Shown here piece after piece: positions 14,900 to 36,803 of a stretch of 36,853 nt of DNA (its first letter is position 1; every line of letters begins with the position of its first letter). The translations under genes were made by a program, and so were the position numbers. The notes under the pieces were generated by a model that ran no database searches, was not told the DNA's origin, and was given only the letters and a program-made list of their open reading frames with translations. Origin of the DNA: a virus; the UHGV virus genome UHGV-0090257; one strand, given 5' to 3'.

Positions 14900-15423
14900 T
14901 TTCCGAATAGAGTGCTCATCGGTGATGTTTCAATCTGGATTGCGCCGCCGTCTTTGCCTGTTAATTCGTGAGAAGCTTGTTCTTTAAACGCCTGAACAGA
15001 AACATGCTTACCAAGAAGTTCGAGGTTTTTAACCTTATCAGGCCATTTGATTTTCTTCAGAAGTGCGGCGCTATCTGCGGATACCATCTCCACGACATCC
15101 ATTCCTGATAGCGTTGTGCGCCATACCTTAGGCCAGTCTTTAATTGGCTTTAACTCGCCGTTTTGCAGGAGAATGTCGAGCACATCCATCTGGTCGATTT
15201 CAATAAGGCGATTAAGTACATATTCTGCATTAATACCAACAAGATCATTGCGTTGCGCTTTCAGTTCGGAGATTCTTAACTTGATATCAGGTTTTGACAG
15301 GTTTTCGGATGCGGTACGGTTAGCTGTCTTTGCGCTGTACCCCGCCCGAATAGCCGCTTGCGTGGCATTTAAATCGATGAGGTACTCGCGACAGAACATT
15401 TCTTGTTTGTCGGTGAGTGCCAT
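14896..15423 (-). CDS. Terminase small subunit
   Basis: 175 aa; N-terminal MALTDKQEMFCREYLIDLNATQAAIRAGYS is typical of phage small terminase HTH domains; immediately upstream of and overlapping terL. Confidence 0.8.
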   Translation of the reverse strand: MALTDKQEMFCREYLIDLNATQAAIRAGYSAKTANRTASENLSKPDIKLRISELKAQRNDLVGINAEYVLNRLIEIDQMDVLDILLQNGELKPIKDWPKVWRTTLSGMDVVEMVSADSAALLKKIKWPDKVKNLELLGKHVSVQAFKEQASHELTGKDGGAIQIETSPMSTLFGK

Positions 15424-15449
15424 TTTTTACTTCCCATAAGGAGATTGTT

Positions 15450-15632
15450 ATGAACGATGACTTTAAAACAGGTGACATTGTTAAACTGAAATCAGGCGGA
15501 CCTGACATGACTATCAGGTCATTTTCATCTACCCACGGTAACTCTTTTCTTTGTCAATGGTTTGCTGGCAAGAAGCTTGAGCAAGGATATTTCAAACCGG
15601 AATCTCTTGAGCGCGTTACCCCAAAGCCATAG
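15450..15632 (+). CDS. Small DUF2158/YodC-like protein, antisense to the late operon
   Basis: 60 aa, MNDDFKTGDIVKLKSGGPDMTI...CQWF matches the YodC-type small-protein pattern as remembered; strong SD AAGGAG 7 nt upstream; start is only 27 nt from the divergent terS start. Confidence 0.6.
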   Translation: MNDDFKTGDIVKLKSGGPDMTIRSFSSTHGNSFLCQWFAGKKLEQGYFKPESLERVTPKP

Positions 15633-15676
15633 TCCCAAACACACCAACCTTAACTCTTGATGATATTTCATCATGG

Positions 15677-15916
15677 ATGATGTCCGTTTTATCAACAGAG
15701 GGTTGCCTTTATCAGCAGGATGTTGTGGATTATCTCGTTAAACAACATAACGAGCAGCACCTCAAAGAAAATGCGGATGGCAACCAAGCGCTATCAACAA
15801 AAGTGATTAATAAATTCAGGGTTGATAGCGGTGAAAGTGTTGTTTGGGTTAAGCCAGATAAGTACTGGCGTTTCCGTGTGCCTGAAGACGAAAACGGTCG
15901 TGAAGCTCGCGGTTAA
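15677..15916 (+). CDS. Hypothetical protein, second gene of the antisense cassette
   Basis: 79 aa ORF on the same strand as the YodC-like gene; start uncertain; ends just before the bidirectional hairpin. Confidence 0.4.
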   Translation: MMSVLSTEGCLYQQDVVDYLVKQHNEQHLKENADGNQALSTKVINKFRVDSGESVVWVKPDKYWRFRVPEDENGREARG

Positions 15917-15926
15917 ACTAATCAAC

Positions 15927-15954
15927 GATAAAAGGCAGCATGTTGAGTGCTGCC
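15927..15954 (-). terminator. Hairpin terminator between convergent genes
   Basis: GGCAGCA-tgttgag-TGCTGCC stem; on the minus strand it is followed by TTTTATC; sits between the plus ORF ending 15916 and the minus ORF ending 15992. Confidence 0.5.
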
Positions 15955-15991
15955 ATATTCATCTCACTTATTTGTTATTTCAGGTTGAGCA

Positions 15992-16234
15992 TCATGCTCC
16001 GGTAGTGAACAGGTCTAACGCTTCCTTCGATTTACGCACCGCTTCGATAGTGCGGGTCGTGATATCTGAATTAGCGCCGCCTGACTGGAAGTGAATTTTG
16101 AATAGCTCAAGCTTCAGTTCGTCAGTGCCAATGAACTGAAATGCTTCTTCTGCGGCTGCGTTCTGGTTCATGACCAGCTTGTAAATCTCTAACTGGAATT
16201 TCTGTTCTTCAGTCATGGGAATAATCTCTGCCAT
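15992..16234 (-). CDS. Hypothetical protein
   Basis: 80 aa ORF in the late-operon direction, followed by a terminator hairpin. Confidence 0.5.
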   Translation of the reverse strand: MAEIIPMTEEQKFQLEIYKLVMNQNAAAEEAFQFIGTDELKLELFKIHFQSGGANSDITTRTIEAVRKSKEALDLFTTGA

Positions 16235-16340
16235 TGTTGGCTCCGTTTATCCGTTAAAAGGGATATCAGTTAAGTTATCCCGTGTAGGGTATAAGCCATT
16301 ATCAAAGCCACTCTGTAGGGAATGGCTTTTGTGATGGCAA

Positions 16341-16364
16341 TAAAAAAGGCCGCCTGAGCGACCT
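16341..16364 (-). terminator. Intrinsic terminator after the DUF551-like gene
   Basis: Minus-strand sense AGGTCGC-TCAG-GCGGCCT followed by TTTTTTATT. Confidence 0.5.
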
Positions 16365-16381
16365 TTCATTTTTCATCCGTT

Positions 16382-16600
16382 TTAATCATCTGGGTAATTA
16401 AGCGGCATCCAGTGTGTAACCTTGCTTGCTCCTGAATCGATGAATGCCTTGGTTCTCTGCCAGTAAGAGCCCATACATGATAGTTTGAACACGTCACCAG
16501 TATCAGTAAGAGCTATAACCTCTTTAGACCACATCCCTTCTTTGCTTTCTGGTAGCCGGTGTTCAACATTGATCCATTGGTTTCCGTTATCATCCATCAC
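16382..16600 (-). CDS. DUF551-like phage protein
   Basis: 72 aa; the motif QWINVEHRLPE resembles the W-x-V-x-D/E-R-L-P-E signature of DUF551 proteins as remembered. Confidence 0.5.
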   Translation of the reverse strand: MMDDNGNQWINVEHRLPESKEGMWSKEVIALTDTGDVFKLSCMGSYWQRTKAFIDSGASKVTHWMPLNYPDD

Positions 16601-16816
16601 AACCTCGTCTAGTTGTTCGCCATAGATTCAGTGGCAGGCGGTGACGAGTCCGCTTTTCGGGAGCTACCCTAGCCACTGCTTTATTCTATCCAATGTCTTT
16701 CCATCAGTCCGCCACCACAAAGAATCTTTTTTGCCATAAGGCAGGAGGTTCATCTTTCAGTGGCTGCCAGTGTTATTTCCCCACTTACTGGCTTGGGTTG
16801 TTTCGCTGTACTGCCG

Positions 16817-17359
16817 TTAATTGGTGAGTCCGGGGATTACGGTTTGCCCGTGCTGTTCAAGGCGTTCAATTCTCGCCAGTAGCTGAGGCTTCTTAATTTT
16901 TCCCCAGCGATTAAGCAGGCGGCCTGACATGCTGGCAACATCCTTCTCTTTCATGTACTCCAGCATTACGGCATTTCTCTCTTCTTCAAATTGACGATGA
17001 CCAACCTGAAGCATGGCGTACATCCAGTTGAATGCGTTGATGTAAGCAATTTTGATACGCATTGCTTCTTTTTTGGTGTAGGACATAACCAAAAGCATCA
17101 ACCCATCCTTGCGGAGACGGTAGAATTTTTGCGGCTTACCATTCTGTAACTCATTGTTTTTATAGCAAAGCTCAAAGTTGAGCTTTGTATTAAACTCAGG
17201 AGGGCAAGCTTCTATGGTTCGCTCAATGTCACGGACTACGTTCTTCGGCAGCTTTCCAAATGCTTTTGCCACCATAAAAGAATCTGTAACCGGATCGTTG
17301 TTTGCTACAAAAATTAGGTCTCTGAAATCTATATCGTTAACAACGGTTGGGTAGTTCAT
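16817..17359 (-). CDS. Rha-family phage regulatory protein
   Basis: 180 aa; N-terminal PVTDSFMVAKAFGKLPKNVVRDIERTIE resembles the Rha domain as remembered. Confidence 0.65.
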   Translation of the reverse strand: MNYPTVVNDIDFRDLIFVANNDPVTDSFMVAKAFGKLPKNVVRDIERTIEACPPEFNTKLNFELCYKNNELQNGKPQKFYRLRKDGLMLLVMSYTKKEAMRIKIAYINAFNWMYAMLQVGHRQFEEERNAVMLEYMKEKDVASMSGRLLNRWGKIKKPQLLARIERLEQHGQTVIPGLTN

Positions 17360-17506
17360 TGCGTCTTTACCTTTTAGAAAGATGAGCCTGTTCGCACAGA
17401 AAAGCCGTCCCCGAGATGGTCGCCACCATATACGGCAATTCTCAGGCTCAGCTTTCTGAAAGACTCGGGATTGTTACGCGCTGCGATGCGCGGTTTACTG
17501 CAGATG

Positions 17507-17532
17507 TAAAAAAGCCCCGCGAATGCGAGGCT
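17507..17532 (-). terminator. Intrinsic terminator downstream of Rz
   Basis: Minus-strand sense AGCCTCGC-attc-GCGGGGCT (8 bp with one G-U pair) followed by TTTTTTAC. Confidence 0.45.
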
Positions 17533-17705
17533 AAATCCTGGTGTTTGTGATGACTGGCTCTTATCTCAACGCAGCCCCTTACCGCGCGCCAGATGCTCAA
17601 TATCAAGCATCAGCAATGAGATGTTTAATCTGGATTCTCTCCAGAAGTGATCACCACCCTGTCTACAGAGCCAGATGTGAAGGATGATGAGTAAAATTAT
17701 CGCTA

Positions 17706-18143
17706 TCATCGAAGGCATTGCGTCCTGATGTACTCCTGCAGGTAGTTAACCTGCGCGGTTATCTTGTCGATTCCGCTTCGGAGACGGTAATAATTGAGTT
17801 CAGCATCTGCTGTAAGTCTTGGGCTTTCTCCATCGCCCATGCTGCTGGCTCCGGTCGTTGACTTTGCACAGGTGGCGGCGACTTGCAGGCGCTTACGACC
17901 AGCAGAAACATCAGCACGGAGACTTTCGATAGTCGCGTTAGCATCAGCAAGCTCCTTTGTATATCTGGCATCGAGTTCTGCTACGTCACGTTGACGCTTC
18001 TGCATATCAGCGATTGTGGATGTGGCTTGATCGCGCTGCTCTTTGTAGGCGATGGCGTTATCACGGTAATGATTAACAGCCCATGACAGGCAGACGATGA
18101 TGCAGATAACCAGAGCGGAGATAATCGCGGTTACTCTGTTCAT
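17706..18143 (-). CDS. Rz: Spanin inner-membrane subunit (i-spanin) Rz
   Basis: 145 aa; N-terminal TM segment then coiled coil; follows the endolysin with a 4 nt overlap; matches lambda Rz closely as remembered. Confidence 0.9.
17759..17944 (-). CDS. Rz1: Outer-membrane lipoprotein spanin Rz1, embedded in Rz in the +1 frame
   Basis: Embedded ORF; from the internal Met: signal-like [20 protein letters not shown] with lipobox VSAC followed by the proline-rich stretch [16 protein letters not shown]. Confidence 0.75.
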
Positions 18144-18616
18144 GCCTCAATCTCTCTGACCGTTCCGCCTGCTTCTTTGAATTTTGCAATCAGGCTGTCA
18201 GCCTTATGCTCGAACTGACCGTAACCAGCCCCCGGCAGTGAAGCCCAGATATTGCTGCAACGGTCGATAGCCTGACGAATATCACCGCGATCAATCATCG
18301 GTAAAGCGCCACGCTCCTTAATCTGCTGCAGCGCAACAGCATCCTGGCTTTTCGGAGAGAAGTCTTTCAGTCCAAGTTGCTTACGGTAAGCATCCCACCA
18401 ACGGGAAAGAAGCTGGTAACGTCCGGCTGCTGTTGATTTGAGTTTGGGGTTTAGCGTGACAAGTTTGCGAGGGTGATCGGAGTAATCAGTGAATAGCTCT
18501 CCGCCTACAATGACGTCATAACCATGATTTCTGGTTTTCTGACGTCCGTTATCAGTTCCCTCTGACCACGCCAGCATATCGAGGAACGCCTTACGTTGAT
18601 TATTGATTTCCACCAT
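18140..18616 (-). CDS. R: Endolysin (lytic transglycosylase), lambda R
   Basis: 158 aa, [51 protein letters not shown]... essentially matches lambda R as remembered. Confidence 0.95.
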
Positions 18617-18923
18617 CTTCTACTCCGGCTTTTTTAGCAGCGAAGCGTTTGATAAGCGAACCAATCGAGTCAGTACCGATGTAGCCGATGAACACGCTCG
18701 TTATATAAGCGAGATTGCTACTTAGTCCGGCGAAGTCGAGAAGGTCACGAATGAACCAGGCGATAATGGCGCACATCGTTGCGTCGATTACTGTTTTTGT
18801 AAACGCACCGCCATTATATCTGCCGCGAAGGTACGCCATTGCAAACGCAAGGATTGCCCCGATGCCTTGTTCCTTTGCCGCGAGAATGGCGGCTAACAGG
18901 TCATGTTTTTCTGGCATCTTCAT
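18600..18923 (-). CDS. S: Holin/antiholin, lambda S (dual-start motif M-K-M)
   Basis: 107 aa, [39 protein letters not shown]... matches lambda S107/S105 as remembered. Confidence 0.95.
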
Positions 18924-19248
18924 GTCTTACCCCCAATAAGGGGATTTGCTCTATTTAATTAGGAATAAGGTCGATTACTGATAGAACAAATCCAGGCTAC
19001 TGTGTTTAGTAATCAGATTTGTTCGTGACCGATATGCACGGGCAAAACGGCAGGAGGTTGTTAGCGCAACCTCCTGCCACCCGCGTTCACGAAGGTCATG
19101 TGTAGAAGGCCGCAGCGTAACTATCACTGATGAATTCAGGATAGCCAGTGGCTACGGCTCAGTTTGGGTTGTGCTGTTGCTGGGCGGCGATGACGCCTGT
19201 TCGCATTTGGTGATCCGGTTCTGCTTCCGGCATTCGCTTAATTCAGCA

Positions 19249-19334
19249 CAAAAGGAAGAGCGCTAGTCTACCTCTATCGATTAACGGGCTTGTGGGGCAG
19301 TATCGCCGATTCACCTAACGCTCTTCCTTTTGTG
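19249..19334. repeat. 16-bp perfect inverted repeat flanking a 54-bp spacer in the late leader
   Basis: CACAAAAGGAAGAGCG at 19249..19264 and its exact reverse complement CGCTCTTCCTTTTGTG at 19319..19334. Confidence 0.6.
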
Positions 19335-19346
19335 ATTGTAACGCAA

Positions 19347-19376
19347 AAAGCCCCGAGCTATTAACTCAGGGCTTTA
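19347..19376 (-). terminator. tR'-like intrinsic terminator of the pR' leader transcript
   Basis: Minus-strand sense GCCCTGAG-ttaatag-CTCGGGGC followed by TTTTTGCG, about 30-55 nt downstream of the predicted pR' start. Confidence 0.6.
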
Positions 19377-19402
19377 TTTAACGAGTGCATTTATCCATCG
19401 TT

Positions 19403-19440
19403 GGGTCAAATTTACCCAGCTTTATTCAAAAAGTCAATAT
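19403..19440 (-). promoter_or_regulatory. Late promoter pR' with Q-utilisation (qut) region
   Basis: Minus-strand sense TTGACT-17 bp-TAAATT directly downstream of Q; the string ttgactttttgaataaagctgggtaaatttgac closely resembles lambda pR' as remembered. Confidence 0.7.
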
Positions 19441-19479
19441 TATGCCGTTAATATGTTGCCATCCGTGGCAATCATGCTG

Positions 19480-20103
19480 CTAACGTGTGACCGCATTCAA
19501 AATGTTGTCTGCGATTGACTCTTCTTTGTGGCATTGCACCACCAGAGCGTCATACAGCGGCTTAACAGTGCGTGACCAGGTGGGTTGAGTAAGGTTTGGG
19601 ATTAGCATTGTTACAGCGCGATATGCGGCGCTTGCTGGCATTCTTGAATAGCCGACACCTTTGCATCTTCCGCATTCTTTCTCAACAACTCTCCCCCACA
19701 GCTCTGTTTTGGCAATATCGACCGCACGGCCTGTACCGTGGCAATCTCTGCATCTTGCGCCCGGCGTCGCGGCACTACGGCAATAATCCGCATAAGCGAA
19801 TGTTGCGAGCACTTGCAGTACCTTTGCCTTAGTATTTCCTTCAAGCTTTGCCACGCCACGGTATTTCCCCGATACCTTGTGTGCAAATTGCATCAGATAG
19901 TTGATAGCCTTTTGTTTGTCGTTCTGGCTGAGTTCGTGCTTACCACAGAATGCAGCCATTCCGAATCCGGCTTGTGATTGCGCCATCCCCATAGCAGCCA
20001 TCACATCAGTACCGGAAAGAGAGTCAGAAGCCGTAGCCCGTGGTGAGTCGCTCATCATCGGGCTTTTTGGCGAATGAAATTTAGCTACGCTTTCGAGTCT
20101 CAT
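19480..20103 (-). CDS. Q: Late-gene antiterminator Q
   Basis: 207 aa; sequence matches lambda Q as remembered ([31 protein letters not shown]...). Confidence 0.95.
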
Positions 20104-20765
20104 GCGCCTTCTCCCTGTACCTGAATCAATGTGAGGTTTCCGCAGAACACTGCGCCGGTATCTATATACATCTGGTTGGCAAACTTGAGTGGTTTCACTG
20201 CTGGCGTATGACCAAAGATGAACGTGTCCGCTCCTTTGATTTCTTTTACGATCCCGTCTTGTGAGTTGCTGATTCGTTCGCGGTTCCAGATTACCTGCTG
20301 ATGATCAACTGGCTTTCCAAACTCGTATTCGTCACAAGGATAATCGGCGTGGCAGATGACATATTTTTTACCTTTGCTCACCAGTTCAATGACTAACGGA
20401 AGTTCATCTGCTTTATGGGCAAGAGCTTTAGCCAGAATTTCTTTGTCGTAATCGAGATTAAAGAACCAGCCACCGCCATTAAACAGCCAGTGATTGACGT
20501 TTCCACGCTCTGATAAGCCATCAATCATCATTTGCTCATGGTTTCCACGTACAGCTCGGAACCAGGGGAATGTGATTAATTCCAGACATTCGACGTTCTC
20601 TGTACCGCGATCGACCAAATCGCCAACCGAGATAAGCAGGTCTTTTTTGGTGTCGAATCCTATCGTCTCCAGTTTTTCCATCAGGTTCGTGTAGCATCCG
20701 TGCAGATCGCCAACTACCCAAATATTTCGGTATTTGCTGCCATCAATTTTTTCGTAATAGCGCAT
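20100..20765 (-). CDS. ninI: Ser/Thr protein phosphatase NinI (lambda PPase)
   Basis: From the internal Met [25 protein letters not shown]... (221 aa) with metallophosphatase motifs GDLHG, GDLVDRG and GNHE; the longer six-frame ORF overlaps ninH and is not the real start. Confidence 0.9.
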
Positions 20766-20949
20766 CTCTTTCACTCCATCCGCGATGAACCATGAGAACG
20801 TCGTTGACGATGGCGTGCATTTTCCCGTCTTTATCATCAACGTATTTTCTGACCGTACCGCGACTACATTTCAGTCTGCGTGCTACTTCTGTCTGGTTTC
20901 CGTATGCTTCAACGAGCATGTCTGGAATGGTTTTTACTGAGAACGTCAT
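20743..20949 (-). CDS. ninH: NinH
   Basis: 68 aa, [37 protein letters not shown]... matches lambda NinH as remembered. Confidence 0.85.
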
Positions 20950-21557
20950 GCGGCCTCACTTCTGCTGTTTCGCAGGTCTTTGAGTTTCTGCTGATATTCC
21001 GCCTTGATGGCCCTGCACTCTTCGACAGTCCAGCGATGGCGGTTATGGTTTGATTCGATTTCGTCTACTGCTTCCTGCCCGATGCGGCTAATCAGTTCGA
21101 CGCGATACGGAACGAGATTTCCGCTTTTGTGCTGGTTGCACACCACGCATTGCTTGTGAATATTGCGTTCATCAAATCGGAGTTGAGGTGCCGCAGCAGT
21201 TGTCCGGTAATGTCCGGCATCCCACTGAGCAGACGTGAGCGTTCCGCACGAGATACATGGTAAGTCGCGGTCTCTTTCTCTGATGAAGGCGTTTACGGCT
21301 TGTTGGGCTTGTTTAATCCAGTAACTGCGGGGCTTTAAGGCGAGTTTTCGAATCTTCAGTTTATCTTTCTGTTTCTGCTCCTCTCGTCGTCGTTTCTTCT
21401 CTGCTGCTTTTTCCGCTTTTTCGCGTTCTTTGCTTCGTCGTTCGAGTGCTATCTTGGTTCCACACTCTGGAGAGCACCACCACTGATTAGCGAATGCAGG
21501 GTGAAACCATTCCCGACATTCATCGTTTTTACATCGTCTTCGCGCTGGTTTAGCCAT
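20946..21557 (-). CDS. ninG: NinG (Rap recombination-associated endonuclease)
   Basis: 203 aa, [33 protein letters not shown]... matches lambda NinG as remembered. Confidence 0.9.
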
Positions 21558-26472: not shown

Positions 26473-26751
26473 TCAGGCCTCGAAGAATTCGCCGTTCTTC
26501 GGGGCTTTTTCTTTTGTCAGCATTCTTGCTACTTTCTTAGCCAGTTCCGCCAACTCCTCGTCTTCAACACCCCATTCAAGAACAGCCAGAAGCATTCCCA
26601 TTTTTGGGATGAAGCTGTCTTTCCATCGCGAAATTTGCGATTCATTAATCCCTAACGCGTCGGCAACCTTTCGCTGACCACGTACAGCAATTCGATTCAG
26701 GATGTTGCTTGTAATTGCATTCGCTTTCTTGCGAGTACTTGTAAGTTCCAT
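26473..26751 (-). CDS. cII: CII-like lysogeny establishment activator
   Basis: From the internal Met: ...GINESQISRWKDSFIPKMGMLLAVLEWGV... aligns with the lambda CII core (VDKSQISRWKRDWIPKFSMLLAVLEWGV); SD AAGGAAAT upstream; the longer six-frame ORF overlaps nutR. Confidence 0.85.
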   Translation of the reverse strand: MELTSTRKKANAITSNILNRIAVRGQRKVADALGINESQISRWKDSFIPKMGMLLAVLEWGVEDEELAELAKKVARMLTKEKAPKNGEFFEA

Positions 26752-26783: not shown

Positions 26784-26801
26784 TGCGCATCAACTTATGC
26801 G
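26784..26801 (-). terminator. Hairpin between nutR and cII (tR1 position)
   Basis: Perfect GCGCAT-aagttg-ATGCGC stem; the downstream sequence is only partly U-rich. Confidence 0.35.
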
Positions 26802-26807
26802 CGTTGT

Positions 26808-26853
26808 ATTCCCGCATTTCGGCGGGAATGAGGACCATGACTGTTAAAGAGCG
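26808..26853 (-). promoter_or_regulatory. nutR (boxA plus boxB)
   Basis: Minus-strand sense boxA CGCTCTTTAACAG and boxB hairpin TTCCCGC-CGAAAT-GCGGGAA, between cro and cII. Confidence 0.7.
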
Positions 26854-26859
26854 GTGTTA

Positions 26860-27054
26860 CTATTTGTTTTTCTTGTTGCTTGGGAAAGGACGAACTTCCT
26901 CTCCAATCACACTGCCATCAGGCTTTACCGTAACCATGATGTTACGGCCTGCCAGAATGGCCTTGCTGATAGCGCACTGGATTACACCAAAGTCACTGGC
27001 TGCTTTAGCCTGTCCATGGATTTTGGCGTAATCGGCAAGTGTCATTCGAATCAT
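26860..27054 (-). CDS. cro: Cro repressor
   Basis: About 64 aa from the ATG at 27054; ...[35 protein letters not shown]...[16 protein letters not shown] aligns with lambda Cro; SD GGAGA upstream. Confidence 0.85.
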
Positions 27055-27083
27055 ATGCACTCTCCGTTATTAACCATGAACAA

Positions 27084-27154
27084 AGAATACTACAGGTATT
27101 CAAAGCAATCAATACTCAGGGTATTTTTAGTTTAAGTACTTTAGCTATTAGAAT
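27084..27154. promoter_or_regulatory. Right operator region with divergent pR and pRM
   Basis: Operator-like dyads AATACTACAGGTATT (27086..27100), AATACTCAGGGTATT (27111..27125) and weaker AGTACTTTAGCTATT (27135..27149); pR -10 TATTCT and -35 TTGATT on the minus strand; candidate pRM -10 TAGAAT at 27149..27154 about 7 nt before the cI ATG. Confidence 0.6.
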
Positions 27155-27160
27155 TAAGCT

Positions 27161-27877
27161 ATGGAAAATAAAAAATCACTGACGACAGAACAGCTCGAAG
27201 ACGCTAAGCGGCTTAAGGCTTTGTATGAGTCAAAAAAGAAAGAATTGGGAATAACCCAATACTCAATCGCTGATGAACTGGGTATCACCCAAGGAGCGGT
27301 AGGGCATTATCTTAATGGCAGAAACGCGCTAAACGTTGAGGTTGCATCTGGTTTTGCACGACTGTTGCAAGTCTCAATTGCTGATTTTAGCCAGTCAATT
27401 GCTGCCAAGGTTGCAGAACAGGCAGAAAGCCTTAAGAGCGATGCCAACGTAAGGTATGCAGGGGAATACAGAGCAGGAAAGAGGTATCCGGTGTTAAGCA
27501 GTATCCAGGCTGGCTCGTGGTGTGAAGCATGCGAACCATACACCATTAAAGACATAGATGTTTGGCTTGAGTCTGACGCGCATATTCAAGGTAATGCGTT
27601 CTGGCTTAAAGTGGAAGGTGATTCAATGACGGCACCGGTTGGGTTAAGCATTCCAGAGGGAACATTCGTTCTTTTCGATACCGGAAGGGAGGCGATCAAC
27701 GGCAGCTTGGTCATAGCAAAACTTTCTGACTCTAACGAAGCAACATTCAAGAAGCTGATAATCGACGGCGGAAATAAATACCTCAAGGGACTTAATCCTG
27801 CATGGCCTCTCGTGCCAATCAATGGAAACTGCAAGATTATAGGCGTTGCAATTGAGACAAAACTAAGGCTGGTTTGA
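27161..27877 (+). CDS. cI: CI-type prophage repressor (HTH plus S24 LexA-like autopeptidase domain)
   Basis: 238 aa; N-terminal HTH (ITQYSIADELGITQGAVGHYLNG), A-G cleavage site in QAGSW, catalytic Ser in GDSM and Lys in FKKL. Confidence 0.9.
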   Translation: MENKKSLTTEQLEDAKRLKALYESKKKELGITQYSIADELGITQGAVGHYLNGRNALNVEVASGFARLLQVSIADFSQSIAAKVAEQAESLKSDANVRYAGEYRAGKRYPVLSSIQAGSWCEACEPYTIKDIDVWLESDAHIQGNAFWLKVEGDSMTAPVGLSIPEGTFVLFDTGREAINGSLVIAKLSDSNEATFKKLIIDGGNKYLKGLNPAWPLVPINGNCKIIGVAIETKLRLV

Positions 27878-27894
27878 TCACGCAAGGGGCGATT

Positions 27895-28263
27895 ATGGTT
27901 GGAACAGCTATAGCAAGCTTTTTTGGGATGTTGGCAATCTCGACAATTTACGGCTTAGCGCATGCTTTTATTGCGAAATCTCTATCAGAAAAAATAAGCC
28001 AGGCTTGGGCGCATAGATTAGCTCGTTTCATGATTCTAGTGATCATAGCAATACAAGGGATATCTGCATTTATCCTCTATGGTTCAAGCTTATACCTGTT
28101 GTATCAAGGCGCGACATTTACGCCTTACACCAGTGATTACGGAACGCTATACGATGGTAGTGAAGACATCTCTATGGCTTGGATCGTCTTTGGTTTATCT
28201 ATGGCCGTGTCTGTTGTAGCAGACATCATTAAGGTAATTCTCGTCTTAACCTTCGCTGACTAA
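27895..28263 (+). CDS. Small polytopic membrane protein co-oriented with cI (lysogenic accessory gene in the rex slot)
   Basis: About 122 aa from the ATG at 27895 (SD AAGGGG); at least three hydrophobic helices; starts 18 nt after the cI stop and ends before OL. Confidence 0.6.
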   Translation: MVGTAIASFFGMLAISTIYGLAHAFIAKSLSEKISQAWAHRLARFMILVIIAIQGISAFILYGSSLYLLYQGATFTPYTSDYGTLYDGSEDISMAWIVFGLSMAVSVVADIIKVILVLTFAD

Positions 28264-28350
28264 ACCATAATCCCGGCAGCAATAGCTATCGGGATCCACT
28301 TCACATATCCCGCATAAAAAACACTGAACAAGCAGACACCGAAAAAAATA

Positions 28351-28437
28351 AATATCCTTTGTATTCATTTGCTTATCATTATTTCACCAAAAATAAATAC
28401 CTTGGGTATTTACACAATAAAATACCTACAGTATTCT
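28351..28437. promoter_or_regulatory. Left operator region with pL
   Basis: Dyads AATATCCTTTGTATT (28351..28365), AATACCTTGGGTATT (28396..28410) and AATACCTACAGTATT (28421..28435), the same family as OR; pL -35 TTTACA (28409..28414) and -10 TATTCT (28432..28437) pointing toward N. Confidence 0.6.
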
Positions 28438-28482
28438 TTAGCCATCAGCAGGACGCTGGAAGCCAAACGGAACAGATTGGCA

Positions 28483-28524
28483 GGCTCTTTAACATTGATG
28501 GGATTGTCCCGCCGAAATGCGGGA
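28483..28524 (+). promoter_or_regulatory. nutL (boxA plus boxB)
   Basis: boxA GGCTCTTTAACA followed 12 nt later by hairpin TCCCGC-CGAAAT-GCGGGA, the same boxB core as nutR. Confidence 0.7.
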
Positions 28525-28838
28525 ACCAAAGAGTAGTTGGCTTTGGGGTGACGTGAAGTGCAGCTGCACGACGGCAACCGGAAGATAAGCACCCGGCGCG
28601 TCACCGCCAAAGTCAATTCCATAGGCGTTATGCAGCCGCCACCATATTCAAGAAAGCTGCACAAGAGGTAGGAGGATTTATGTGAATACTTACATTCAAT
28701 TGAGAGATTAATTAAATAGAACTGATCGAGCAGAGTCCATGAAGGCTCATAAATGCTCTTCCATCCCCGTCTAATTGGCGGGGAAGGAAACCACTTTGTA
28801 ATAAAAAAAATTCCAAAGTTGTTTCATCGGAGGTCAAC

Positions 28839-29138
28839 ATGACAGTAGTCATTACATATCTGGCTGACGATAACGCCAGAAATCGCCGCAGAGCACGCAG
28901 ACAGGCTCAACGTGAACAGGCAATGCAAGAGCAGCGACTGGCGCGAAAAATTGCGCTAAAGCTCTCTGGTTGCGTCAGAGCAGATAAAGCAGCATCACTC
29001 GGAAGCCTTCGCAGCAAGAAGGCAGAAGAAGTCGAGCGTAAACAGAACCGTATTTACTACCGCAAGCCCCGCAGTGAAATGGGTGTGACATGTGTTGGTC
29101 GCCAGAAAATGAAATTAGGCAGCAAACCACTTATTTGA
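28839..29138 (+). CDS. N: N-type transcription antiterminator
   Basis: 99 aa; N-terminal arginine-rich motif NARNRRRARRQAQREQA; first gene downstream of pL/nutL; SD GGAGGT. Confidence 0.8.
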   Translation: MTVVITYLADDNARNRRRARRQAQREQAMQEQRLARKIALKLSGCVRADKAASLGSLRSKKAEEVERKQNRIYYRKPRSEMGVTCVGRQKMKLGSKPLI

Positions 29139-35644: not shown

Positions 35645-36803
35645 TGTGCCAGAACAATTTATCAGCGTGAAGCTCATACGCTTTGCGCTGAGCCTCTATC
35701 CAATCGTGTTTATTGTATACGGACATTATCCCGCCAAGTTCATGACCGAGCATTCGCTCAGTAACATGAGGCTCGACATTCATCTCGGACAGACGTGTAA
35801 CAAGCGTTCTTCTGAAATCATGTGTTCGCCAGTAACCTATATCCATCCCTCCCCTTATTCTATTTACGAATCGGTTGGCTGCAGCGATGCTGATCGGTTT
35901 GTTTATGTCTTCTCCAGGGAAAAGAACATCATTGTACGTTGTCATGGCCTTATCGAGGAAAGGCTTAATTTGTTCGAAGATTGGACGGCGGATAACATTA
36001 CCCATCTTGCTATGCTCTTTCGGTACGGTCCATACGTTGTCCAGCAGGTCAAATTCTGTCTTTGTTGCCAGCCTAAGCTCTGAGAGCCTCGCCCCCCACA
36101 GCATAAGCATCTGATGAAGTAGCTTATTTGACGTAGACGCACGGCTTCTTTCAATAGCAAGCCAAATCTTAGCCAGTTCGTGATACGACAGTACCCGATC
36201 CCCTACCTCAGCGCGGGAGCCGAAGTCCCTTGGTTGGATGCTCATAATTGCGCAACTATCTATCAACTGACGCCGCATGCACCAACTTATTGCTGATCTT
36301 AGTTGACTTAGCACCTGCCTTGCTCGGCGTGGATTATCTCTTTCTTCTTCGGTAAGCAGGTCAACCCATTGCTTAACCGTGATAGAAGATGCCGGACGAT
36401 TAGGAAAGGCGTCATGCATGCGCTTCATAACCGTTGATCGGTAAAGTGCCTGGGTCTTTTCTCTGAGAGTTGTAGAGACGTAGTTGTCGAACCAGTAGTC
36501 GAGACACTGGGCGACCGTCATGGAGTTCTCCACCTTCTCTTCAAAATAGGTGCGTGGATCCGTTCCTGAGAAATAGAGCTTTCGCAAGTCAGCAGTGATC
36601 TGTCTGGCATCCTTCAAAGACAGGGATGGGTATCGACCAAGCCCAAGTCGATTAGGCTTGCCATGCCAGCGATAGCGGTACTGGAACTGGATGACCCCCT
36701 TCGGTGAAATTCGTACGCTGAGGCCATCGGCATCAGCCACTTCTTGTGGGCCCGAATATGGTTTACCATAAATAGTACGCAGTTTTGTGTCGCTTATAGC
36801 CAT
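35625..36803 (-). CDS. int: Tyrosine recombinase (P4-type phage integrase)
   Basis: 392 aa; N-terminal arm-binding type domain (GLSVRISPKGVIQFQYRYRWHGK), catalytic-region motifs HDFRRT and MLGH, and a tyrosine in SVYNKHD. Confidence 0.9.
   Translation of the reverse strand: MAISDTKLRTIYGKPYSGPQEVADADGLSVRISPKGVIQFQYRYRWHGKPNRLGLGRYPSLSLKDARQITADLRKLYFSGTDPRTYFEEKVENSMTVAQCLDYWFDNYVSTTLREKTQALYRSTVMKRMHDAFPNRPASSITVKQWVDLLTEEERDNPRRARQVLSQLRSAISWCMRRQLIDSCAIMSIQPRDFGSRAEVGDRVLSYHELAKIWLAIERSRASTSNKLLHQMLMLWGARLSELRLATKTEFDLLDNVWTVPKEHSKMGNVIRRPIFEQIKPFLDKAMTTYNDVLFPGEDINKPISIAAANRFVNRIRGGMDIGYWRTHDFRRTLVTRLSEMNVEPHVTERMLGHELGGIMSVYNKHDWIEAQRKAYELHADKLFWHIRSISD

Follow-up and report, generated by a model that had tools for sequence, protein, structure and literature searches.

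The region around cI and cro in the viral genome UHGV-0090257 very probably forms the switch for immunity (lysis/lysogeny) in a lambdoid, P22-like prophage, and its sequence places it in the HK620 immunity type. The switch itself is an ordinary feature that has already been described, and the original prediction read it correctly: OR1-3, OL1-3, pR and pL are annotated in the HK620 record (GenBank AF335538; Clark, Inwood, Cloutier & Dhillon 2001). Positions and PWM ranks given here refer to the window, the whole analysed stretch of 36,853 nt (36.8 kb). Table 1 lists the features.

Table 1. Features of the immunity region and their positions in the window
Feature	Position	Strand	Sequence or elements	Remarks
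cro	26860..27054	-	64 aa; recognition helix QCAISKAIL	lambda-type Cro fold family; divergent from cI
pR	27084..27112	-	-35 TTGATT (27112->27107), 17-nt spacer, -10 TATTCT (27089->27084)	drives cro; matches HK620 pR
OR1	27085..27101 (17 bp; core 27086-27100)		GAATACTACAGGTATTC	overlaps pR -10; same as HK620 OR1
OR2	27110..27126		CAATACTCAGGGTATTT	overlaps pR -35, adjoins pRM -35; centre -43 from cI ATG
OR3	27134..27150		AAGTACTTTAGCTATTA	weakest OR site; PWM rank 6/36,833; equals HK620-annotated OR3
putative pRM	27126..27161	+	weak -35 TTTAGT (27126-27131), 17-nt spacer, -10 TAGAAT (27149-27154), 6 nt (TAAGCT), ATG	
cI repressor	27161..27877	+	238 aa; recognition helix QGAVGHYLNGRN	lambda-type N-terminal HTH, S24 self-cleaving C-terminal domain
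hkaS-like small membrane ORF	27895..28263	+		between cI and OL, place of lambda rexAB; hkaS in HK620
probable OL3 (distal)	28350..28366		AAATATCCTTTGTATTC	centre 45 bp from OL2; PWM rank 5/36,833
OL2	28395..28411		AAATACCTTGGGTATTT	overlaps pL -35; exact motif, annotated in HK620
pL	28409..28437	+	TTTACA-17-TATTCT	drives nutL and N; promoter scan and HK620 pL
OL1	28420..28436		AAATACCTACAGTATTC	overlaps pL -10; exact motif, annotated in HK620

The immunity module and its genes

The module running from cro over OR, cI and the hkaS-like ORF to OL is 98.8% identical to coliphage HK620. Identity to the window is 98.8-99.2% for the immunity regions of HK620, mEpX2, HK630 and HF4s, and 98.6-99.2% at the DNA level over cro-OR-cI-hkaS-OL when all HK620-type phages are considered (HK620, mEpX2, HK630, HK140, HF4s, HZ41, phi296, phi367 and some Stx2c). 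The N-terminal domain of CI (residues 1-101) is 99% identical to that of HK620 and 100% identical to those of HK140, mEpX2 and phi296. HK620 has OR1-3, OL1-2, pR and pL annotated at places equal to ours; OR1, OR2, OL1 and OL2 are base-for-base identical, and pR, pL and nutL are likewise the same. Upstream of OL the two differ by a few SNPs and a 1-bp indel. Larger differences are seen in the flanks: the window carries a lambda-type cII/O and a DnaC-like loader whereas HK620 has a P22-c1-like cII and a helicase-type P, and the N leader of the window contains a CUS-3-type insertion of about 208 bp, unlike HK620. The immunity group that the original prediction saw defined by these operators is that of HK620, mEpX2, HK630 and HK140. 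With the immunity type named, predictions can be made of the temperate phages that are excluded and of potential recombination partners. The module was found in 146 of 5,426 complete E. coli genomes (about 2.7%), and 344 copies are in IMG/VR.

Both regulators are homologous to those of lambda. CI, which matches Pfam HTH_3 and Peptidase_S24, is a full-length homologue of lambda repressor (PDB 3bdn, E 2.9e-52). Its N-terminal domain is 50.5% identical to that of lambda cI, with the N-terminal arm and helix 1 conserved, and this match supersedes the description 'similar to 434 and L cI' in the HK620 record. In the alignment with 3bdn the residues QAG, GDSMT and FKK stand opposite lambda A111-G112, S149 and K192, so that the Ala-Gly/Ser/Lys self-cleavage apparatus is conserved. 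Cro matches Pfam Cro (E 3.6e-26, 91 bits) and PDB 1cop (E 4.7e-19); its start is the ATG at 27054, based on the HK620 annotation and the sequence context, and is preceded by a Shine-Dalgarno (SD) GGAG. The small membrane ORF that replaces lambda rexAB had no match in Pfam.

The likeness to lambda extends to the layout of the switch: three 17-bp dyads in OR between divergent cI and cro, and O1/O2 sites overlapping pR and pL. The OR centres lie at about -19, -43 and -68 in the window and at about -19, -42 and -66 in lambda (counted from annotated OR coordinates), the spacing being 25/24 bp against 24/23 bp. Specificity differs: the half-site AATACY has A2, A5, C6 and C7 in common with the lambda half-site TATCACC but differs at positions 3-4, and the recognition helices read QGAVGHYLN (lambda QSGVGALFN) for CI and QCAISKAIL (lambda QSAINKAIH) for Cro. 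The conserved CI residues Q44, N55 and K4 and Cro residues Q27, K32 and R38 are presumably, judging from structural knowledge, those that touch the conserved bases in the lambda co-crystals. Phages 434 and P22 follow the same logic (tripartite OR/OL, HTH repressor with S24, divergent pR/pRM), but their operators are of 14 and 18 bp and of unrelated sequence, their Cro proteins have an all-alpha HTH rather than the lambda Cro fold (in Pfam, P22_Cro as opposed to Cro), and the sequence similarity of CI to theirs is much lower than to lambda.

The sequence anatomy, the lambda homology of both proteins and the conservation of sites, spacing and -10-to-ATG register are observed; from them we infer how the proteins bind and cooperate, how pRM is activated, how the DNA loops and where the mRNA starts. 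CI dimers, and also Cro dimers, would recognise the 17-bp dyads AATACY-N3-RGTATT. With CI on OR1/OR2 (pR) and OL1/OL2 (pL), probably bound cooperatively at the 25-bp spacing, early transcription would be switched off both ways, and immunity of the lysogen is predicted against phages that share these operators (HK620, mEpX2, HK630, HK140, HF4s and some Stx2c). CI at OR2 would be positioned to activate the weak divergent pRM, from which the maintenance transcript should start at or within one base of the AUG and, like that of lambda, need no Shine-Dalgarno for its translation. Through OR3, the weakest site, which overlaps the pRM -10, CI should regulate its own gene negatively and Cro should shut off pRM. 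The third OL site probably helps by OL-OR looping, as in lambda.

Operators and early promoters

The motif AATACNNNNNGTATT (AATAC-N5-GTATT) has four exact matches in the window, at 27086, 27111, 28396 and 28421, whereas 100 dinucleotide-preserving shuffles yield none. These four are OR1, OR2, OL2 and OL1. The original prediction had counted six such pairs, three of them in OL. Four stand as exact dyads, but OR3 (core at 27135, AGTACTTTAGCTATT) has two mismatches (8/10) and OL3 (core at 28351, AATATCCTTTGTATT) has one (9/10); beside the exact OL1 and OL2, a third OL dyad at 28351-28365 is probable. The predicted OR spacing of 25 and 24 bp was recovered when measured centre to centre, and in OL the corresponding distances are 25 bp (OL1-OL2) and 45 bp (OL2-OL3).

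We scored the window with a PWM trained on 98 sites from 29 prophages of other genera, the window being excluded. The six sites take ranks 1-6 of 36,833 window positions, with the reservation that the training sites were picked using the motif and the core columns are thus partly circular. OR1 scores 20.9, within the top four of the window, OL3 scores 13.2 and OR3 9.0; the next best match in the window reaches 6.2. In sequence, OR is a tripartite operator that lies between cI and cro, has OR3 as its poorest site and overlaps pR and the putative pRM; the operator consensus is refined to AATACY-N3-RGTATT.

More diverged relatives show the same arrangement. Since an N-terminal-domain protein search gave mostly fragments, we used tblastn against phages and a profile-based scan of species-representative genomes. 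The recognition helix Q(G/S)AVGHYLNGRN is kept in 32 loci, among them loci of Serratia, Yersinia, Pectobacterium, Pantoea, Tatumella, Proteus, Morganella, Providencia and Photorhabdus; for about 30 relatives the CI N-terminal domain is 60-84% identical. The operator motif indeed recurs beside cI homologues in these genomes: most of the diverged loci have three sites, near -74 (OR1), -50 (OR2) and -26 (OR3) from the cI ATG. Perfect sites are present at OR1 in 21 of 33 relatives, at OR2 in 16 and at OR3 in none. When 23 OR regions were aligned with MAFFT without guidance, the half-sites, TA..AT and the ATG came out as invariant columns, and across the roughly 30 diverged relatives only the half-sites, the TAnnAT hexamer and the ATG are invariant within OR. 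A divergently encoded lambda-type Cro with helix QxAISKA accompanies cI in 28 of 34 loci.

Closer copies were suited to polymorphism rather than footprinting: in a scan of viral contigs, the CI N-terminal domain matched 80 loci, each of them 99-100% identical. Among 81 near-identical copies 13 OR positions are polymorphic, none of them in the AATAC/GTATT pentamers of OR1 and OR2, although this avoidance of the operator core is marginal (about 0.06 by a simple binomial). The two changes at Y/R positions are transitions that preserve Y and R. The OR of HK620 differs from ours by one base, inside OR3 (C there, T at 27140 here). The T is rare: 80 of the 81 other copies have C.

Another observation concerns the two early promoters. 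The original prediction called them near-identical, with TATTCT as the -10 of both. The -10 and the register relative to O1 are indeed common to both, but the claim was overstated: the stretch from O2 over O1 to the -10 is identical at 35 of 50 nt, and the -35 hexamers differ. A consensus promoter scan with a threshold of 9 of 12 called pL and missed pR (8/12). An Rfam search gave no match in the region.

Placement of the third operators

Judged on sequence alone, neither OR3 nor OL3 reaches significance, because 23 matches with up to two mismatches occur in the window against 15 expected. This lends some weight to the reading that only OR1, OR2, OL1 and OL2 are real operators and that the other two matches arose by chance in the AT-rich DNA of the promoters, the site at 28351 really being part of a pL-upstream A-tract/IHF/UP-type element or of the weak 'tIMM' hairpin. 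The left half of OL3 in fact overlaps an A-rich element, AAAAATAAAT, that supplies its first bases and recurs at 45 bp from OL2 in almost every relative and even in lambda, whatever the operator specificity; the OL3 match is therefore in part inherited for another reason. In lambda this pL-upstream element belongs to the IHF/UP region. HK620 moreover labels the stretch at 28351 tIMM, so that our OL3 overlaps that annotation and not the HK620 OL3.

Nonetheless, we consider the four-operator reading rather unlikely, as position and comparison with relatives appear to rescue both sites. A site with one or two mismatches is present at -26 in 27 of 33 relatives, lying over the pRM -10 exactly as in lambda. 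At the 45-bp position, both halves follow the operator consensus in loci that lack a proximal third site, whereas the match is degenerate (3-5 mismatches) where a proximal site is present. The distance from OL2 is exactly 45 bp in six loci (L085, L088, L090, L091, L113 and L114), and in the last two the site is perfect. The fifth and sixth PWM ranks, well above the next best match, also argue against chance. A hairpin is hardly a better explanation: that of 'tIMM' consists of A-U pairs only, and the region 28250-28395 folds no better than its shuffles (z = -1.3). The consensus scan revealed no credible terminator in the stretch from hkaS to OL.

A different question is whether a third OL operator lies where HK620 has it annotated, at about 28373-28389 (TTATCATTATTTCACCA), 21-22 bp from OL2 as in lambda. 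Besides the annotation itself, six relatives (L087, L089, L092, L097, L100 and L104) speak for this place, as their OL2 has a good third site at a distance of 21 bp. In the window, however, the sequence has 8 mismatches in the 10 core positions and a PWM rank of only about 15,000-21,000 of 36,833. It is not conserved among type-A relatives, and the window and HK620 differ by C/T at 28387. The distal site is identical in both. We therefore regard the annotated place as highly improbable, and OL3 at 28351-28365 is much better supported. OL1 and OL2 are certain, and with this probable distal site OL too would be tripartite and overlap pL; the third site (28350-28366) lies over an element that is conserved but not an operator, and it departs from the HK620 annotation. 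The spacing of the third OL site among relatives is 21, about 29 or 45 bp, and the OL3-OL2 distance in lambda is 20 bp against 45 bp here.

The comparison thus suggests two things, and that both hold seems to us an even bet. The first is that OL3 is misplaced in HK620, the real one lying 45 bp from OL2 atop the conserved A-rich pL-upstream element, and that OL3 geometry is flexible. The second is that a single specificity, with AATACY-N3-RGTATT as operator and QGAVGHYLNGRN and QxAISKA as the helices of CI and Cro, persists in more than 15 Enterobacterales genera whose CI N-terminal domains are only 60-84% identical. Given such a shared specificity, cross-immunity could reach far beyond near-identical phages; Hafnia phage Pocitis76 is one diverged relative with this consensus. 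The comparative set yields a cleaner operator consensus, a corrected OL3 and support from natural variation for a lambda-style leaderless cI throughout the clade. Annotation can make use of it, and it provides a diverged system to set beside the lambda switch; the current understanding stays unchanged.

The putative maintenance promoter and the predicted start of the cI transcript

The original prediction placed a pRM -10 (TAGAAT) about 7 nt before the cI ATG and proposed a leaderless cI mRNA as in lambda. The distance is correct, the A of the ATG being the seventh nucleotide beyond TAGAAT. With 6 nt left between the two, transcription from pRM would start at or near the AUG, and the predicted +1 is the A of the ATG at 27161. 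In lambda, the pRM mRNA is described as leaderless (PMC10491246). The two switches agree in detail: the final two bases of OR3 also open the pRM -10, and lambda OR3 likewise gives its last 2 bp to the -10, followed by 6 nt and the ATG (TAGATT + TAACGT + ATG). The conserved TAnnAT at 6 nt from the ATG, the lack of a consistent Shine-Dalgarno and the homology to lambda together support a leaderless pRM transcript, though they do not prove it. Outside the primary HK620 paper, our literature search found no experimental binding, footprint or cI 5'-end study of HK620-type immunity.

Alternatively, cI in the lysogen could be expressed from a leadered mRNA with a conventional ribosome binding site, TAGAAT not being the maintenance promoter. 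A likely pRE-type promoter upstream (TTGC-N6-TTGC at 26709-26722) would give a leadered establishment mRNA, with a start expected at about 26740-26750, and pRM stayed below the threshold of the consensus promoter scan. Several observations make this alternative improbable. The cI frame contains no in-frame start upstream of 27161, and the N-terminal arm and helix 1 of CI are conserved with lambda. In the lambda homologue, the -10 hexamer and the ATG are arranged in exactly this way. The cro-cI gap of 106 bp is taken up by pR and the three operators. The ATG in the window is without a Shine-Dalgarno (anti-SD duplex +0.2 kcal/mol), and the relatives have no consistent one at cI either (the anti-SD duplex averages -3.3 kcal/mol, compared with -7.0 at cro). 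For the pRM transcript we thus favour the leaderless form; pRE should yield a leadered cI mRNA alongside it, and finding one would be compatible with the leaderless form.

Finally, the register between hexamer and ATG is kept across the relatives whereas the six bases in between vary. Of 32 relatives, 23 have a gap of 6 nt and 28 one of 5-7 nt; in four relatives from Morganella the -10 stands in another register to the ATG.

Identity of the immunity switch

The switch belongs to the known HK620 type and is a diverged homologue of its lambda counterpart; its map orientation in the window is inverted compared to lambda. HF4s, mEpX2, HK620, HK630 and HK140, together with two EHEC-derived and two Stx2c phages, have immunity regions 98.6-99.2% identical to the 1.6 kb from 26850 to 28450, and this stretch is found in 146 of 5,426 complete E. 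coli genomes. OR1-3, OL1-3, pR, pL, tIMM, nutL and nutR are all annotated in the record of coliphage HK620 (AF335538), where OR1, OR2, OR3, OL1 and OL2 coincide with the originally predicted operators whereas OL3 does not. In the literature searched, no experimental study of this type of immunity was found. Overall, the observation of the original prediction is confirmed and its interpretation supported for an already known feature. Our analysis adds a sharper consensus, a probable repositioning of OL3, support from relatives for leaderless expression from pRM, and an operator specificity shared across a broad Enterobacterales prophage clade.

Features of the immunity region and other elements of the window
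Feature	Position	Strand	Remarks
int-alpA sRNA	16617-16679	-	
cII	26473-26751	-	
CII site	26709-26722	+	TTGC-N6-TTGC
nutR	about 26800-26860	-	
cro	26860-27054	-	
cro-cI gap			106 bp, contains OR
OR1	27086		AATACNNNNNGTATT
pR	27112->27084	-	TTGATT-17-TATTCT
OR2	27111		AATACNNNNNGTATT
OR3	27135		AGTACTTTAGCTATT
pRM -10	27149-27154		TAGAAT
cI	27161-27877	+	
Small membrane ORF (hkaS-like)	27895-28263	+	
A-rich element	28341-28352		AAAAATAAAT
OL/pL	28350-28437	+	
OL3, predicted	28351		AATATCCTTTGTATT
OL3, HK620 annotation	about 28373-28389		TTATCATTATTTCACCA
OL2	28396		AATACNNNNNGTATT
pL	28409-28437		TTTACA-17-TATTCT
OL1	28421		AATACNNNNNGTATT
nutL	28484-28524	+	
N-leader insertion	28618-28825		about 208 bp
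N	28839-29138	+	

The OR region differs from that of HK620 and mEpX2 at a single position, 27140, the Y position in the left half of OR3 (T against C), while the OL sites are the same in all three. C is present in 80 of 81 near-identical IMG/VR copies, and a single one shares the T; both bases are compatible with the operator consensus.

CI consists of HTH_3 and Peptidase_S24 domains. It can be aligned from end to end with lambda repressor (3bdn, E 2.9e-52), retaining the Ala-Gly site, Ser and Lys, and the two N-terminal domains share 50.5% identity. Cro is a member of the lambda Cro family (Pfam Cro; 1cop, E 4.7e-19). The module is therefore more than an analogue of imm-lambda: it is a diverged homologue. 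Comparing the half-site (G/A)AATACY with lambda TATCACC in a 17-bp frame, A2, A5, C6 and C7 are common and positions 3-4 differ. In lambda co-crystals the shared bases are contacted by CI Q44, N55 and K4 and by Cro Q27, K32 and R38, all of which are present here, whereas CI S45, G46 and A49 and Cro S28 and N31 are changed. Going by established structural knowledge, kept and changed residues would correlate with shared and differing operator bases.

Operator consensus and comparative evidence

Six AATAC-N5-GTATT pairs had been predicted, of which four are exact: AATACNNNNNGTATT occurs exactly four times in the 36,853 bp and in none of 100 shuffles of the window. OR3 carries two mismatches and the predicted OL3 one. 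Since 23 matches are found at up to two mismatches against 15 expected, these two sites require further support. The spacing in OR is 25 and 24 bp, as predicted, and in OL 25 and 45 bp.

A profile scan of species-representative genomes yielded 32 related prophage loci with a CI N-terminal domain 60-84% identical (from Serratia, Yersinia, Pectobacterium, Pantoea, Tatumella, Siccibacter, Lelliottia, Lonsdalea, Enterobacter, Photorhabdus, Providencia, Proteus, Morganella, Kluyvera, Phytobacter and Scandinavium), to which the phages Pocitis76 from Hafnia (79%) and Fostie (68%) were added. All loci retain Q(G/S)AVGHYLNGRN, and 28 of 34 have a divergent lambda-type Cro with helix QxAISKA. Most relatives have three dyads near -74, -50 and -26 relative to the cI ATG. 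OR1 is perfect in 21 of 33 relatives, OR2 in 16 and OR3 in none (one or two mismatches in 27), the same strong-strong-weak grading as in lambda. When 23 OR regions were aligned with MAFFT without guidance, the columns that stayed invariant were the half-sites, T-A..A-T of the -10 and the ATG, with free variation in the spacers and between the operators.

For an operator matrix, 98 sites were taken from 29 other loci. Its sixth half-site position is a pyrimidine (C 89, T 104, A or G 3), giving the consensus AATACY-N3-RGTATT. Scanning the window with this matrix, whose core columns are partly circular because the training sites were chosen by motif, places the six sites at ranks 1-6 of 36,833 positions (23.2, 22.3, 21.4, 20.9, 13.2 and 9.0; next best 6.2); what is informative here is how the two weak sites rank, along with the Y/R columns.

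Four Morganella loci (L106, L109, L110, L112) have no lambda-type cro beside cI; a nut boxA lies immediately past OR1, OR has a poor third site, and the gap from -10 to ATG is 3 nt, a different register. The Fostie-like loci L084 and L111 (QSAVGHY helix) have Ser for Gly at the lambda S45 equivalent and shifted half-sites (AGTAC / ACTAC-N5-GTACT), which may represent a specificity variant inside the family.

Position of OL3

At the OL3 annotated in HK620, 8 of 10 core positions are mismatched in the window and the matrix rank is above 15,000. Across relatives the OL1-OL2 distance is always 24-25 bp and the third site takes three alternative positions: 21 bp from OL2 (L087, L089, L092, L097, L100, L104), about 29 bp (Pocitis76, L086, L093, L098, L099) or 45 bp (the window, L085, L088, L090, L091, L113, L114), the last being perfect in L113 and L114. 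A good distal site mostly occurs without a proximal one and vice versa, which favours the predicted OL3 over the database annotation. However, the element AAAAATAAAT precedes the OL2 centre by exactly 45 bp and keeps this position in nearly all relatives (about 25 diverged ones), whatever the operator specificity. Its AAAAATA-AAT runs up to and into the left edge of 28350-28366, so the left-half match is partly inherited for another reason. Lambda has a matching A-rich element at the same distance from OL2 (CTGCAAAAAATAAATTC, NC_001416 about 35673-35685); this part of lambda is the IHF/distant-UP region upstream of pL (Giladi et al. 1998), and the element here may belong to such a region. On balance, we consider 28350-28366 probably a genuine CI site.

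The HK620 tIMM, an all-A/U hairpin, overlaps this probable OL3. No convincing intrinsic terminator was found between the hkaS-like ORF and OL (28264-28350).

Promoters, cI transcript and neighbouring elements

The pR and pL promoters share the -10 and the register to O1, but calling them near-identical was too strong because the -35 hexamers differ and only 35 of 50 nt match. The pRM -10, predicted about 7 nt before the cI ATG, is separated from it by 6 nt. There is no in-frame cI start upstream of 27161, and conservation of the CI N-terminal arm and helix 1 with lambda makes the start codon secure. A Shine-Dalgarno sequence is lacking before cI (duplex with the anti-SD +0.2 kcal/mol; for cro, -7.0). 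Of 32 distinct relatives, 23 have exactly 6 nt between the end of TAnnAT and the ATG and 28 have 5-7 nt, the six bases themselves not being conserved. Lambda has the identical register (TAGATT, TAACGT, ATG), the first two bases of the hexamer coming from OR3, and its pRM transcript is described as leaderless in PMC10491246. OR2 is centred at -43 relative to the predicted +1, which is where lambda CI sits when it activates pRM. Taken together, these features give strong circumstantial support to a leaderless pRM transcript of cI, with the predicted +1 at the ATG. The lambda-type CII site inside the 5' end of cII points to a pRE running antisense through cro into cI, from which a leadered cI mRNA would arise as well in establishment.

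Both nut sites have the boxA GCTCTTTAAC, and their boxB hairpins (TCCCGCCGAAATGCGGGA) are identical. N is 95% identical to HK620 N over the first 65 residues and then divergent; the cII/O/DnaC-like replication module is unlike HK620's, which makes the prophage a mosaic. The N-leader insertion relative to HK620 has no Rfam match; it is 99% identical to the CUS-3 'bsq5 boundary sequence' and within it a boxA-like sequence (GCTCTTCCA) precedes a GC hairpin (TCCCCGTCTAATTGGCGGGGA). The sole Rfam match in the window is the int-alpA sRNA (45.1 bits, E 2.5e-6).
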